Part shown: one piece after another, positions 5,375 through 23,522 of the stretch
Numbering within the stretch: the first letter of the stretch is position 1
Layout of the letters: every line of letters begins with the position of its first letter
DNA from: Dictyostelium discoideum
Taxonomy: Eukaryota
Direction of reading: 5' to 3'
Assembly (NCBI GenBank): GCA_000004695.1
Contig: CM000150.2
Coordinates: 3,648,001 to 3,712,000, forward strand
DNA length: 64,000 nucleotides
Notes under the pieces: model-generated
Seen by the model: the letters and a program-made list of their open reading frames with translations, nothing else
What the model was told of the DNA's origin: nothing
Databases searched by the model: none
Translations under genes and position numbers: made by a program

Positions 5375-7402
<2,028 letters not shown>

Positions 7403-9897: not shown

Positions 9898-9926
9898 ATT
9901 ATTATTATTATTATTACTATTATTAA

Positions 9927-9957
<31 letters not shown>

Positions 9958-10191
9958 ATTGCTATTATTATTATAAGTATTATTATTATAGGTATTATTA
10001 TTATAGTTATTTCTATAATTATTATTTAAATTTTCATCATAATCGTCATCTATGGAATAACTTTGATCAAAATCATCACTCTCAATTGTTTCTTCATTTT
10101 CAAATTTTCTTTTATTTTTATTATTAGGAATTTCATTACCAATTTTACTATTACTGTTATTATTACTATTATTATTGTTGTTATTATCCAT
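8011..10191 (-). CDS. Hypothetical N-rich protein, paralogous in architecture to 5375..7402 (basic stretch + SWNDKQSDELWNLFHELY motif + coiled coil)
   Basis: Long minus-strand ORF. The track start at 10326 is a poly-T read-through, and the first true ATG is at 10191 (MDNNNNNNSNNN…). The motif GKKRGASWNDKQSDELWNLFHELYASG and the coiled coil IESLEDTIKQLREKIKQQARLLE mirror the neighbouring gene. Confidence 0.55.
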
Positions 10192-11264: not shown

Positions 11265-11774
11265 TTTTTTAATTGATTTCGGATTGTTTTTTTTTTTTTT
11301 AAAATTAAAAATCAAATGAAAAAAATAAAAAAATAAAAAAAGTGATAAATTTCACCAAAAAAAAAAAAAAAAAAAAACCAAAAAAAAAACCAAAAAAAAA
11401 TTGTTTTTTTTGTTTTTTTTTTTTTCACATCAATGTGAGAACAAATAAATAAAATTTGATTTTAAAATTATTATTAAAATATTTTATTATTTTCACCTTT
11501 TATTACAGCATACCAGTTTTGTTGTGTTTTAAAGAATTTCCAAATCAGATAATCCTGGCAAATTTGTGATAAGAGTCCATTTTCCAAATGAATTAATCAC
11601 AGAAAATCTCTAATAATAAATAATAATAATAATAATAATAAAAATATTAATAATAATAATAGTAATAATAATAATAATTATAAAAATAAAATAAAATAAA
11701 ATAAAAATAAAAAGAAATAAATAAAATAAAATAAATAAATAAAAAAATAAATTTGTTTTAAATAAAATAAAAAT

Positions 11775-11809
<35 letters not shown>

Positions 11810-12514
11810 AATTTAGTTATATTAATTTGATAAAAACATAAGGATGGTTGGATATAAAAATTTCAGCATTTTAAAAAAAAGAATTATTTGAGCTATATAT
11901 TTTTTTTAAAAATAAAATTAATATGTGAACAAATAAAAAATTAGACACCCATTAAAAAAAAAATCAAAAATAATAATAATTACATTCGTTTTTTATATAT
12001 TTTATATCATTTTGTGTATTTTTGAGTGCTCTATTAATCTACACTAAATCTATTAAAAAAAATAAAATAAAATCATTATTGGGAAAAAAAAAAAAAAAAA
12101 AGAAAAAAAAAAGATGGAAATTTTTTTTTATTTGGGTGTGTAATTGGAATATTTTATTAATAAAATTAAAATGGGAAAAAAAAATTGTTTGGGTACCTAA
12201 TTTGAAAATTTTATTAATAAAATTAAAATGGGAAAAAGAATTTTTTTTAAATTGTGAAAAAAAAAGAAAAAAAGAATATAAAAGCCAAAATTTTTTTTTA
12301 ATAAATTATTATCAAACACCAAATCATACATATTAAATAAAATCAATATATATATAAAATTTTAAATTCTTTTTTTTTTAAACAAATAATTCTTTGCCTT
12401 ATGAGCTTAAAAAATAATTGTAAGTTGAAAAAAATTTATAAAGATTTATAATGGTTTCTAATATTTTTAATTAGCTTTTAAAGATTTAGTGGATTATCTT
12501 TTTGATAAATATTC

Positions 12515-13090
12515 ATTCAATACTAGGATCACGAGATAACTCATACCATTCATGTGCACCAGTGTAATTTTCTACATTTTTAACAATCTTTAATTCAAAG
12601 TTAAGAGAATCAATATTTAAGATAACATAACATGCACGATAAACACCTTCAGTGCGATATTTAATTTCAGAAATTTTTTTTTTAAATTTTTTTTATCAAT
12701 TGTTTTCATTTGATTAATATAATTCTCGTATGAAATTGTACCTCTAAAAAGGTCTTTGAATTTTTGATAGGCATGGTATCCTTTTAAAATATATAATTGA
12801 CAAAATTCATTATATTTTTGAAGGGTTCTATTTTTACTCTTGACACCACCAAATGAAACATGTTTCCCAAACAATCCTCTAACTTTATCTTTTACGTCAT
12901 CAATATTATTTTGGCAAAATTTGGTGGCTTAATCAACATTGAAGCAATCATCATATTGATTTCCATTATTTACCAAATAATCTATAAGAGTTTTGTTTTT
13001 TTCGTTATTATATTCATGCTTTTGAATAAAATTGTGAGCTATTTCTAGCTGTTTTATTTCAGATTGGGTCAAGTTATTAGCTTCATTTTC
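12515..13090 (-). pseudogene. Disrupted ORF (probable pseudogene) of unknown family
   Basis: A minus-strand reading gives about 190 aa of non-low-complexity protein (…NENEANNLTQSEIKQLEIAHNFIQKHEYNNEKNKTLIDYLVNNGNQYDDCFNVD*ATKFCQNNIDDVKDKVRGLFGKHVSFGGVKSKNRTLQKYNEFCQLYILKGYHAYQKFKDLFRGTISYENYINQMKTIDKKNLKKK/ISEIKYRTEGVYRACYVILNIDSLNFELKIVKNVENYTGAHEWYELSRDPSIE*). It has one in-frame TAA (about 12915) and one frameshift inside an A10 run (about 12670). It has no initiating ATG. Confidence 0.4.
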
Positions 13091-16994: not shown

Positions 16995-18427
<1,433 letters not shown>

Positions 18428-19019
18428 AAAAAAAAATAAAAAAAAAAAATAAAAAAAAAAAATATACAAACAAATCAAAAGAAGATTCATTATGAAAAAA
18501 AATAAAATTAAATTAAATGTTTTATCAAATTATATTGGTAAATCAATATTTTAAAAAAATAAAAAAAAAATAAACAAACCAAAAGAAGATTCATTGTGAA
18601 AAAAAAAAAAAAAAAAAAAAAAGGTTTTAATTATTCAAATTGTATTGATAAATCAATAAAAAATATATGTAGTGGTGGTGCTAATTCCGTAAATACAAGT
18701 TTTCAATCTTTACCAACAATTTAGTACTAGTATTATTAGTAATAAATTCAAATAATTTCTTCAAAAACCGAAATTTATCTTTATATTTCGACATGAAGAA
18801 AAAAATAATTAATTTGCTGATATTGCTATCAATCTTTATAGTTTAGAAACTCAAAAGAAAAATCAATCAATCTTCAAATAAGGAGAAAAAATTAAAGTAA
18901 TAATAAAAAAAAATTATTATTTACTAAAAATTACTATTTATTTAGATTAAATTTATTTATTTATTTAATTTAATTTTTTTTTTTTTTTTTTTTAAATTGA
19001 TTTTAGTTTTGTTTTAAAT

Positions 19020-19381
19020 TTAACAACATCTACGATGACGACGACGACCAATATCAATGTCAAGGTTAATGATATTTGTGTTTGAACCTCCACTACAACC
19101 ACCATTAAAACCACCATCACCACCCCATCCACTTAAACCACCCCATCCACCTAAACCACTACCACCACAACCACCATCAAAATATGCAATTGAATTATCA
19201 TTACTAGTGAATCCATTACGATTAGAGGTACTATTTGAACTTCCCATTGCACTAGTTGAATTTGAAATTGATGAAATTGATTCTGTTATATTATAATAGT
19301 GGTAAATGATTAGTTGTTGTAAAATAAAAAAATAAAAAAATAAATAAAAAATAAGAATTAATATTTACTAAAAATTGCCAT
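19020..19381 (-). CDS. Small Gly/Cys-rich hssA/2C/7E-like protein, copy 1; exons 19381..19369 and 19282..19020
   Basis: A 13-nt first exon ATGGCAATTTTTA is followed by a GTAAAT donor, a 86-nt intron and a CAG acceptor. Exon 2 gives [91 protein letters not shown] (91 aa). The architecture (SISSIS N-terminus, Gly-rich core, C-terminal Cys pair) resembles the Dictyostelium hssA/sigN small-protein family (recalled from memory, not searched). Confidence 0.65.
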
Positions 19382-19713
19382 TGTTATTTGTTGTTTTTTA
19401 AAATGTTTTGGTTTTATTTTTTATAATTTTATAATTTTTAAAATATAAATAGTTAATTAAATTGTTTGATTAAATTATATTAAAAAAAAAAAAAAAAAAT
19501 TTAAATGATAGGAATTTCCATTATTTACAAAAACAACTTTTTTTAAAATATATAAATTTAATTTTTAAAAACAAAGATTTTGTTATTTTATTGATAAATT
19601 AATCAAACAATTTAATAAACTATTTATATTTAAAAAATAATAAAAAATAATAAAAAATAAAAAATAAAATCATTTTTTAAAAAAAAAAAGTTTTTAAAAA
19701 TCAATACAAATAA

Positions 19714-20034
19714 ATGGCAATTTTTAGTAAATATTAATTCATTCTTTTTTTTTAAATTAACATTGCTTTTACTTACATTATAGAACTAATTTCATTAATT
19801 TCAAATTCTACTGGTTCAATGGGAAGTTCAATTGGTACCTCTAATCCTGATGGATTTGCTAGTAACAATAATTCAATTGCATGTTTTGATGGTGGTTGTG
19901 GTAGTGGTTCAGGTAGATGGAGTGGTATGGGTGGTATTGGTGGTTTTAATGGTGGTTGAGGTGGTTGTGGAGGTTCAAACACAAATATCATTAATATTGA
20001 TATTGATTTATGTCGTCGTCGTAGATGCTGTTAG
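19714..20034 (+). pseudogene. hssA/2C/7E-like copy 3 with an in-frame TGA (probable pseudogene); exons 19714..19726 and 19784..20034
   Basis: Same 13-nt first exon and GTAAAT donor. Exon 2 [82 protein letters not shown] has TGA at 19957-19959 in frame, plus a 6-nt insertion relative to its paralogs. Confidence 0.55.
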
Positions 20035-20469
20035 TTTCCTCTTAAAATTTAAATTATTATAAATATACAAAAGTTTTTTATTTTTTTTAAAAAAAAAACA
20101 AAAAATAAAATATTTTTTTAATTTTTACCTACATTTTCTTGTATTTTATTCATTGAATGTCTTTATTCTCTATTTTTAAAATAAGATGATTTTTTAAAAA
20201 ATAAAAAAATAAAAAAAAAAAATAAAAATAAAAAATAAACCTAAGAGATTTCAAACATTTTTTAATATCTGAAATATTTTATTTTATTTTTAAACTTGGA
20301 ATTAAATCAATATTTTGTAATTATATTAAATAAAAAAAGAAGAAAAAGAAAAAAAAGAAAAAAAATAAGAAAAAACTTTAAAAAAAAAATAAAATTAATG
20401 TATTGATAGATCTTTAAAATGAAAATAAAAAGATAGTTAATATTATTATTTTATTGATTAGAAAAAATT

Positions 20470-20600
20470 AACAACATTATGATGACGACTACATCCAATA
20501 TCAAAGTCACATCCTCCCAAACCATCACCAGAACATGTGTTGAATTATCATTGAAAATTGATCCATTATAACTACTGGTGGGGATTGAACTTGATGTTGA
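20470..20600 (-). pseudogene. Truncated degenerate relic of an hssA/2C/7E-like gene
   Basis: The minus strand reads …GGCDFDIGCSRHHNVVN*, a decayed version of the family C-terminus …[23 protein letters not shown]. It has no 5' exon or ATG. Confidence 0.4.
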
Positions 20601-20690
20601 TCCAGATGAATTTGTAAAATTATTATTTAAAATAGTTTGTAAAATTTAAAGTTTATAATATTTACAAAAAATTGACATTTTCTTGATATT

Positions 20691-20768
20691 TATTGTTTTT
20701 TTTTGTTTTTCTTTGTTTTTCTTTGTTTTTCTTTGTTTTTCTTTGTTTTTATTTGTTTTTATTTGTTC
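20691..20768. repeat. (CTTTGTTTTT)n decamer tandem array (about 7 units)
   Basis: ttttgtttttctttgtttttctttgtttttctttgtttttctttgtttttatttgtttttatttg lies between hssA-like relics. Confidence 0.85.
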
Positions 20769-21035
20769 TAATTAATAAGTAACAAAATTATAAATTTATA
20801 GTTTTTTAATTTTGCAAAAAAAAAAAAAAATAAAATAAAATGAAATAATATAAAAAAAGTTGTTTTACAAATCTATTTATTTAATTATGGAAATTCCTAT
20901 CAATTAAAATTTTATTTTATTTTAAAATAAATTAATTAAATAATTTAATTAACTATTTAAATTGGAATAAAAAATTAAAAAAAAAAATAAAAAAAAAATC
21001 ATTTTTTAAAAAAATAAACAAGTAAAAACAAAAAA

Positions 21036-21397
21036 ATGGCAATTTTTAGTAAATATTATTTCTTTCTCACTTTTTTTTTTTTTTTTTTTTGATTATGAAT
21101 AATAACTAATGATAAAATTATAAAAAAATAATAGAATCAATTTCATCAATTTCAAATTCTACTGGTTCAATGGGAAGTTCAATTAGTGCCTCTAATCTTG
21201 ATGGAATTGATAGTAACAATAATTCAATTGCATGTTTTGATGGTGGTTGTGGTGGTAGTGGTTTAGGTGGATGGAGTGGTTTTAATGGATTGGATGGTAT
21301 TGGTGGTTTTAATGGTGGTTGTAGTGGAGGTTCAAACACAAATATCATTAACCTTGACATCGATATTGGTCGTCGTCGTCATCGTAGATGTTGTTAA
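21036..21397 (+). CDS. Small Gly/Cys-rich hssA/2C/7E-like protein, copy 2; exons 21036..21048 and 21135..21397
   Basis: Identical 13-nt first exon and GTAAAT donor, with the AG acceptor at 21133-21134. It encodes [91 protein letters not shown]. The last 24 residues are identical to copy 1. Confidence 0.65.
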
Positions 21398-21574
21398 TTT
21401 ACTCTAATTAATAATAATAATAATATTGATAATTAAAAATAATAATAAATAAAAAGTTAAACTGTTTTTTTTTATTCTTTCTTTATTTTTTATTTTTTTT
21501 TAAATTTTATTATTTTTATTATTATAAACTTTTTAATAATAATAATAATAATTAAATATTAAAAAAATATTTAA

Positions 21575-22922
21575 TTAATTTTTTAAAACTTTATTATTTT
21601 CTAAAAAATTATCAATTTCATTTAATGGTATAATTGATTGAGTTGTGTCATCCATATTTTTAATGATAACAGTATTATTAGAATATTCAGAAGGTGCTAA
21701 AATGATTACAAAAGAAGGATTATTTTTAAATTTTTTTAATTGTTTTGAAAGGTTTTCATCCTCTAAATTAAAAGTTGACAATGTTGAAGACCAACCATTT
21801 CTTCTAAGATTTGAACAAAGTTTAAAAGCATTCTCTGAAAGTGATGAATCAGTTATCGCTATACCAATTGGTCTAATTGAATTTGGAATTTTAGATTGAT
21901 CTAAAAACAATACCATTCTTTCAATACCAGATGCCCAACCAATTGATGGTAATATTTCTTTATATTTATATCCTAATTGATTTGCTAAACCATCATACCT
22001 ACCACCACCTAATATTGCTAATCCTTGTTGTTGTTGCTGTTGTTGTCTTTGTCCTTTATTATTTTGATTATTATCAATTATTTGAATTTCAAATATTGTA
22101 TGTCTATAATAATCTAAACCTCTAACTAAAGATTTATCAATTTCATATGAAATACCTAAACAATCTAAACCTTTTAAAACATTATTAAAACGATCTTTAC
22201 ATTGTATTGATAAACTATCTTGAATTGATGGTGCCAATTTATTTAATTCAATATCTTGTCTTTCTTTTGAATCTAAAATACGTAATGAATTACCTCTCTC
22301 TAATCTTTTTATAGAGATTGGTGATAGCTTATTAACATTATCATTATAGAATCGTTTTAATGTTTCATTGTAAACTTTAATTGAATCAGTATCACCTAAT
22401 GAATTGATTTTCAAGAGAGTATCAGATTTATTAATACCAAGTCTCTCTATGAAATTCATGGCCATATCAATGATTTCAACATCTGATCTTGGATGTTGAT
22501 CACCAATTAACTCTACACCCAATTGATGAAATTGTCTTTGTCTACCTCTTTGTGGTCTTTCATATCTAAACATTGGTCCTTGATAATAGTATCTTTGAGC
22601 TGGTGTTAAATGATTGGTTGATGATTGATTAATAATTGCACGTATTACTCCTGCTGTACCTTCTGGTCTTAAACATATCATTGATGGTGGCGATGATGAC
22701 TCATTTGAATAATCTTTAAATTTAAACATCTCTTTCATTACAATATCTGAACTTTCACCAACTGATCTATTAAATAATTCAAATGGTTCTATTATTGGTG
22801 TACTAATTTCTTTAAATCCATATCTTTCTGCAACACCTCTTCCAACATCAAATATAAATTTATGAATTCTTTGTTCATTTGGAAATAAATCATATGTTCC
22901 CTTTATATTTTGTAAATTGATA

Positions 22923-22983
<61 letters not shown>

Positions 22984-23080
22984 TTGTTGAATAATAAAAA
23001 ATACTTTTATTTCGTAATATTGATGTATTTTTTAAATTGTTATGTAATAATGACGAAATTAAATTTGATGTTTTTAACAT
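21575..23080 (-). CDS. Histidyl-tRNA synthetase, bacterial/organellar type with an N-terminal presequence (probably mitochondrial)
   Basis: ATG at 23080 (MLKTSNLISSLLHNNLKNTSILRNKSIFYY…). Class II aaRS motifs are present: GTYDLFPNEQRIHKFIFDVGRGVAERYGFKEISTPIIE (motif 1 region), RPEGTAGVIRAI, RYYYQGPMFRYERPQRGRQRQFHQLGVELIG (motif 2) and GGGRYDGLANQLGY…GWASGIERM (motif 3), then an anticodon-binding domain. The track start at 23164 is a poly-T read-through. Confidence 0.88.
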
Positions 23081-23522
23081 TTTTTTTTTTTTTTTTTTTC
23101 CAATTTTTTTTTTTTTTTTTTTATAAATAGTCAAAAAAAAAAGGGGTTGAAAATCCAAAATCAATCTAAAATTATAATTTTAAAATAAATTAATATATAA
23201 AATAAAAATTTTAATGTTATCTGTTTTTTATTTGTTTAGTTTTACCAAAAAAAAAAAAAAAATTAAAAAATTAATTTTTAAAAAAAAAAAAAAAAATCCC
23301 ATTTTTTTTTTTTTAAAAAAAAATAAAAAAAATAAAAAAAGAAAAAGGAAAAATATCAACACCCATCATGTAAATATTTTTTTTTTTTTCCTCTCTCTTT
23401 TTTTTCACTTTTTTTTTTTTTTTTTTTTAAAATATTATTTTATTTTATTTTATTTTAAAAATAATAATTAATAATTAATAATTAATAATTAATAAAAATA
23501 AATAAAAAAAATAAAAAAAAGA

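Follow-up and report, generated by a model that had tools for sequence, protein, structure and literature searches.

Three hssA-like reading frames lie close together in the 64-kb stretch of DNA analysed here (the window; G+C content 20.9%), and in copies 1, 2, and 3 alike the frame upstream of the internal Met reaches a stop without passing an ATG, as a preliminary description of the sequence had stated for all three. Where, then, do these proteins begin? The same description proposed that an identical 13-nt stretch located upstream of each frame is a first coding exon, set apart by a short intron. The cluster is bordered by a homologue of KIN17 (17240-18427, plus strand) and by a histidyl-tRNA synthetase reading frame (21575-23164, minus strand), the latter recognized by collinearity with locus L002 of GCA_054859355.1, a genome labelled D. 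discoideum. The KIN17 homologue is 87% identical to a protein labelled D. discoideum, 80% to that of D. citrinum, 73% to that of D. firmibasis, and 56% to that of D. purpureum.

The 19-mer ATGGCAATTTTTAGTAAAT, composed of the 13-mer ATGGCAATTTTTA and the donor GTAAAT, has exactly three perfect matches in the window (19381-19363 on the minus strand, 19714-19732 and 21036-21054 on the plus strand), and this exact search reproduces every position at which the identical micro-exon and its donor had previously been placed. When up to three mismatches are allowed, the window holds five matches as compared with 0.51 expected, and 0 of 100 shuffles reached five. The predicted parts of the three copies are as follows.

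19369-19381, minus strand: copy 1, exon 1 (coding), ATGGCAATTTTTA, with the codons for M A I F and the initial base of the Lys codon; from the exact 19-mer match and splice reconstruction
19283-19368, minus strand: copy 1, intron of 86 nt, GTAAAT…CAG, 13% GC, phase 1, without internal AG
19020-19282, minus strand: copy 1, coding part of exon 2 including the TAA stop; spliced product of 91 aa, tblastn with family proteins, PF05710
19714-19726, plus strand: copy 3, exon 1 (coding); from the 19-mer match and splice reconstruction
19727-19783, plus strand: copy 3, intron of 57 nt, GTAAAT…TAG
19784-20034, plus strand: copy 3, exon 2 with an in-frame TGA at 19957-19959; from splice reconstruction
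21036-21048, plus strand: copy 2, exon 1 (coding); from the 19-mer match and splice reconstruction
21049-21134, plus strand: copy 2, intron of 86 nt, GTAAAT…TAG, 12% GC
21135-21397, plus strand: copy 2, coding part of exon 2 including the TAA stop; spliced product of 91 aa, tblastn, PF05710

For copies 1-3, the 13-mer was joined to each AG located 40-160 nt downstream of the donor. In all three copies the first downstream AG is the sole acceptor that yields a family reading frame, and an unspliced reading from the exon-1 ATG runs into a stop after 7 codons. The spliced copies begin MAIFK(S/L)IS(S/L)ISNST…. Their introns contain 12-16% G+C, start with GTAAAT, and end with CAG or TAG, in agreement with the AT-rich intron and frame-restoring YAG acceptor previously described for each copy; the distance requires correction, since the micro-exon had been placed 57-97 nt upstream and the actual intron lengths span 57-86 nt (86, 57, and 86 nt). 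The lack of an internal AG has a chance probability of ~0.2 per intron and is weak evidence, and several D. firmibasis introns do carry internal AGs. Copies 1 and 2 have the same layout, 13 nt followed by an 86-nt intron and 263 nt, which matches the published family gene structure at the level of sequence. It is to be noted that the 13 nt are the coding part only of exon 1, which also holds the 5' UTR. For copy 1, a TATA-like run located ~50 nt before the ATG predicts that this UTR would measure no more than a few tens of nt.

On this sequence evidence, the three 13-mers very probably carry the start codons of three paralogous genes in the hssA/2C/7E family (sigN, PF05710 'Coiled'), belonging to its UPF0512 branch. 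We are similarly confident that the coding sequence of copies 1 and 2 would truly begin with the 13-mer, and we infer by homology that copies 1-3 would be transcribed and spliced in the source organism.

The spliced product of copy 1 (91 aa, of which 21 are Gly, 16 Ser, and 10 Asn) fits the family trait of proteins shorter than 120 aa and rich in Ser, Gly, and Cys. The 91-aa product announced in the preliminary description is obtained for copies 1 and 2 but not for copy 3, which is cut to 62 aa by its in-frame TGA. A Kyte-Doolittle scan of the N-terminus finds no hydrophobic core (maximum 11-residue mean 1.17), which makes a classical signal peptide unlikely. Both intact products pass the PF05710 gathering score of 21.4 by a small margin (21.6 bits for copy 1, 23.9 bits for copy 2), with residues 1-68 aligned to profile positions 1-67 and 1-60, respectively; copy 3, read through its stop, reaches 17.6 bits and stays under the cut-off.

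Spliced copy 1 used as a query retrieves 26 relatives, all from Dictyostelium. Its best database matches are the AX4 proteins UPF0512 L, M, and R (P0001, P0002, and P0003; 'hssA/2C/7E family protein'), with E values from 5e-32 to 3e-27, UPF0512 being the UniProt name for the AX4 proteins A-W. These three share with the window copies their length class (85-91 aa) and both termini, but their sequences are not identical: BLASTP identity to copy 1 is 64-67%, and tblastn over the copy 1 region gives 81% to UPF0512 M. None of the exact products (three spliced, two starting at the internal Met) is present in a collection of 15 billion proteins. The start MAIFKSISSIS… that had been foreseen for the window proteins is also that of AX4 UPF0512 A, B, D, L, R, and U (MAIFKSISSISN…) and of D. 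firmibasis proteins; UPF0512 J, with MAIFKSISNST…, is one SIS unit shorter. The 'MTIL' start given for the family in the preliminary description belongs to another branch. UPF0512 M (P0002, DDB_G0293326) starts MGYPESISSIS instead of MAIFKSISSIS, either through mutation of its exon 1 or through a wrongly chosen first exon in its gene model.

The signature taken to define the UPF0512 branch, to which the window copies conform, combines an N-terminal M-[AT]-I-F-[KN]-S-I-S-S-I-S-N with a C-terminal N-x-N-[IV]-I-N-x-D-I-D-I-G-R-R-x-R-R-C-C. In alignment A1, the residues M1, I10, N12, N72, N74, I75, I76, N77, D79, I80, D81, R89, C90, and C91 are invariant, and I3, F4, and K5 are nearly so. The locus that encodes exactly AX4 UPF0512 W has ATGACAATTTTTA followed by GTAAAT, a 90-nt intron, and …TTTTAG before ATTCAATTTCA, and only a splice from ATGACAATTTTTA across that intron yields the protein.

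This organization is a hallmark, published in 2008, of a family of ~100 genes. According to Vicente 2008 (PMC2257962), 89 of 96 D. discoideum genes carry a 13-nt ORF in exon 1; sigN cDNA is there set against the genome, and the accompanying table gives '1 - 13 // 2 - ~190-290' for the exons and 66-122 nt for the introns. At 57 nt, the intron of copy 3 falls below all those in the part of this table compared. Kin 2018 (PMC6198379) likewise describes the family gene structure as having a "13 bp first exon". The annotated gene starts of D. firmibasis and the published 13-nt exon-1 ORF hence both agree with the structure put forward in the preliminary description, for which a comparison with annotated family genes had been suggested. 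The sigN genes of PMC2257962 resemble those of the window in their 13-nt exon-1 ORF, single small intron, and second exon of ~190-290 nt, as well as in their short products (<120 aa) with abundant Ser, Gly, and Cys and in their clusters of opposed pairs. They differ in that the sigN group 1 and 2 proteins form a different branch of the family, encoded on chromosome 2, and the prestalk, SrfA-dependent expression reported for sigN is not to be assumed for the window genes. High expression of hssA/7E/2C genes in cup cells has been reported (Kin et al. 2018, PMC6198379). The supplement text examined for PMC6198379 contains neither DDB_G0293326 nor a link between the UPF0512 branch and the cup-specific clade, and 'UPF0512' does not occur in the searchable papers. 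The functions suggested in PMC6198379 and PMC2257962 include secretion, a part in adhesion in the case of sigN, and action at the RNA level in that of hssA. Because the layout is already published as a family hallmark, the finding of the start exon is correct but ordinary.

Based on these data, we propose the following course of expression for the window genes. Transcription would start from a short, extremely AT-rich promoter held in common with a divergent partner gene. Removal of a single phase-1 GT-AG intron (86, 57, or 86 nt) would then join exon 1 to a second exon of ~260 nt, and translation from the exon-1 ATG would produce a Gly/Ser/Asn-rich protein of ~91 aa ending in RRCC.

The same architecture is seen at other Dictyostelium loci. 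In a set of 15 genes from five genomes (the window, D. firmibasis L001, the D. discoideum-labelled L002 of GCA_054859355.1 and L004 of GCA_054883475.1, and D. cf. discoideum L003), exon 1 contributes 13 coding nt and the intron is in phase 1 in every case, while the length and sequence of the intron vary. The introns, 57-100 nt long, begin with GTAAAT, GTAAGT, or GTAGGT and end with YAG or AAG; as their lengths fall into all three classes modulo 3, the frame is kept by splicing only. In the D. firmibasis cluster, eight annotated gene starts lie on 13-mers of the type ATGGCAATTTT[TC]AGTAA[AG]T, and applying the splice rule there reproduces the deposited proteins P0006, P0008, and P0013. Like the window, this cluster (RB653_010413/010414/010440) has its genes, eight in all, in head-to-head pairs, with products MAIFKSISSI… and introns of 65-100 nt, but it occupies a different chromosomal neighbourhood without similarity of the flanks. 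Within exon 1, a synonymous TTT>TTC change is seen in two D. firmibasis genes, and other branches of the family use ATGACAATTTTTA (MTIF) or ATGACACTTTTTA (MTLF) with unchanged geometry.

The window is collinear with L002 at 88-91% nucleotide identity, a level at which it was assigned to a close relative of D. discoideum rather than to AX4. In the same interval L002 has one head-to-head pair (ATGs at 12034, minus strand, and 12347, plus strand) with intact spliced ORFs. Copy 1 is the orthologue of its minus-strand member, with 94% identity in the intron, and copy 3 is the positional orthologue of its plus-strand member. The hssA-like interval spans 3.1 kb in the window versus 1.6 kb in L002, and the additional ~1.35 kb of the window corresponds to copy 4 and copy 2. 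Relative to L002, one pair has thus grown to two pairs, with two decayed copies. The eroded sites of the window are these.

20468-20678, minus strand: copy 4, decayed; 19-mer with two mismatches, tblastn match at 20538-20636 only
18919-18937, minus strand: fifth exon 1 and donor relic, ATAGTAATTTTTAGTAAAT, with its ATG lost; degenerate 19-mer downstream of copy 1

Copy 4 retains an exon-1 relic, ATGTCAATTTTTT followed by GTAAAT, within the degenerate 19-mer ATGTCAATTTTTTGTAAAT (20678-20660, minus strand). Its SISSIS segment and its acceptor are lost and its body is frameshifted; joining to any AG yields no ORF. It lies head-to-head with copy 2 and resembles the MTIFN branch rather than the MAIFK branch. 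The fifth relic is followed by no ORF, and the surrounding segment (18899-18998) is similar to promoter and exon-1 sequence of the L002 and L001 copies. A similar, more eroded stretch is found at the corresponding place in L002. Beyond these five sites, no further family members were found in the window by tblastn, by a six-frame search for SISSI-type peptides, or with the micro-exon pattern; tblastn gives two weak low-complexity matches (6163-6333 and 9922-10011).

In copy 3 no further stop interrupts the frame after the TGA until the family C-terminus …IDIDLCRRRRCC, where it ends with TAG at 20032-20034, and the position of the TGA corresponds to Cys in the AX4 paralogues P0002 and P0009. 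Copy 3 is probably a young pseudogene, the other option being a sequencing error. A selenoprotein reading was considered and rejected, as no SECIS or other Rfam match occurs in 18400-21600 at E<=10. The four copies (1 and 2 intact, 3 with a nonsense codon, 4 wrecked) display the birth-and-death pattern expected for the hssA/2C/7E family.

Could these genes instead have a single exon and start at the internal Met (MGSS…, 75 aa), the 13-mer being a conserved element of the 5' UTR or promoter? The internal ATG does stand in a reasonable context in all three window copies. However, the codons upstream of it are conserved as protein: identity among the three copies is 92% over the first 48 nt of exon 2, as compared with 57% in the adjoining intron. 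Moreover, Met17 is replaced by Ile in P0004 and P0007 and by Leu in P0006, P0008, and P0013, which leaves the exon-1 ATG as the sole possible start in these five proteins; P0004 has no other Met at all. The 75-aa versions lose all Pfam matches (no PF05710 match at E<=10), and the published cDNA comparison and gene models, as given in PMC2257962 and PMC6198379, include the 13-nt exon-1 ORF. A single-exon structure is highly improbable in light of these observations. One may also ask whether the perfect identity of the 19-mer merely records a very recent duplication or gene conversion without selection, in which case the apparent exon would be a coincidence of paralogy. The appropriate null for this identity is neutral drift after duplication, not chance. 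The window copies are indeed recent paralogues in a tandem, inverted cluster, copies 3 and 4 are decaying, and part of the 19-mer identity could come from shared ancestry. This is not the whole story because introns and promoters have diverged: among the three copies, identity is 100% over exon 1 and the donor but 57% in the rest of the intron and 67% in the upstream 100 nt, and intron lengths differ (57 vs 86 nt). For 13 genes drawn from three genomes, the corresponding values are 93% for exon 1 and the donor, 57% for the intron, 65% upstream, and 78% at the start of exon 2. The 13-mer and donor are furthermore kept in D. firmibasis, GCA_054859355.1, GCA_054883475.1, and D. cf. discoideum, at a distance for which the KIN17 homologue gives a measure (73-87% identity to those of D. 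firmibasis, D. cf. discoideum, and GCA_054859355.1). An explanation by paralogy alone is almost certainly incorrect.

Granting the coding start proposed here, two further readings concern what the genes do with it. The family architecture might be real and every window copy nonetheless silent or a pseudogene. The TGA of copy 3, the wreck of copy 4, and the fifth relic all point that way, as do the quick turnover of the family (one pair in the L002 interval against two in the window) and the absence of the exact products from the protein collection. We nevertheless give this reading only a slim chance: copies 1 and 2 keep their start codon, donor, acceptor, and full ORF and have lost none of the invariant family residues, those of the C-terminal N-x-N-I-I-N-x-D-I-D…RCC included; the intron of copy 1 remains close to that of its orthologue, and both orthologues have intact ORFs. 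Alternatively, the 5' exon-intron module may have a role at the RNA level in addition to coding, for example in intron-dependent high expression or as a regulatory transcript. This idea arises because the 13-nt ORF, the donor, and the short intron are kept throughout the family, with 19 of 19 nt identical in three paralogues. A report cited in PMC6198379, in which a frame-shifted hssA still suppresses a culmination defect, hints at a regulatory transcript. We consider such a role unlikely. Most of the conservation can be accounted for by preferred AT-rich codons together with the constraint on splice sites. The reading that we retain is that of an ordinary coding start, spliced to the body of the gene.

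The start codons of copy 1 (minus strand) and copy 3 (plus strand) are 332 nt apart, and those of copy 4 (minus strand) and copy 2 (plus strand) 357 nt apart. Head-to-head pairs are also present in L001, L002, and L003. Oppositely oriented pairs in clusters are described for the family in PMC2257962, where the clusters are proposed to stem from a duplicated tandem of two oppositely oriented genes. The two intergenic regions of the window are listed here.

19382-19713, no strand: intergenic region between copy 1 and copy 3, 332 nt, 8% GC, with flanking inverted repeats
20679-21035, no strand: intergenic region between copy 4 and copy 2, 357 nt, containing GGAAATTCC

The region between copies 1 and 3 is presumed to be a bidirectional promoter. 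Near the middle of both head-to-head regions (8-10% GC) lie GGAATTTCC (19511-19519) and GGAAATTCC (20889-20897), in opposite orientation and as the only two occurrences in the 64-kb window. GGAATTTCC is conserved at the orthologous spot of L002 (12160) and absent from the D. firmibasis cluster, whose shared promoters, unlike those of the window, have no central GGAAWTTCC motif. We regard GGAATTTCC/GGAAATTCC as a candidate shared cis-element of bidirectional promoters. An inverted repeat, …TAGTTAATTAAATTGTTTGATTAA…, flanks GGAATTTCC at 19448-19478 and 19598-19628, its arms lying ~65-115 nt upstream of the start codons. The copy 1/copy 3 pair is consistent with an inverted duplication of a gene together with its promoter. 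Just upstream of the decayed copy 4, a 10-nt tandem repeat (TTTTTCTTTG / TTTTTATTTG) is present in about 6-7 copies at ~20700-20765.

The exon geometry reported here is nothing biologically new, and its value lies in annotation. Automatic pipelines miss such genes because the start codon sits on a 13-nt stub beyond an intron. The pattern ATG-N10-GTAAAT/GTAAGT, then …AG followed by A(A/G/T)TC(A/G)AT…, would pick out members of the family in new dictyostelid genomes, and such a search would also sharpen counts of its rapid birth and death. In GCA_054859355.1, the intact orthologous pair (L002, ~11690-12695) has no called gene. In D. cf. discoideum L003, two of the four motif-bearing copies are uncalled (5637-5655 and 7127-7145, both on the minus strand), and P0021 from the same locus (111 aa) appears to be mis-modelled at its 3' end.
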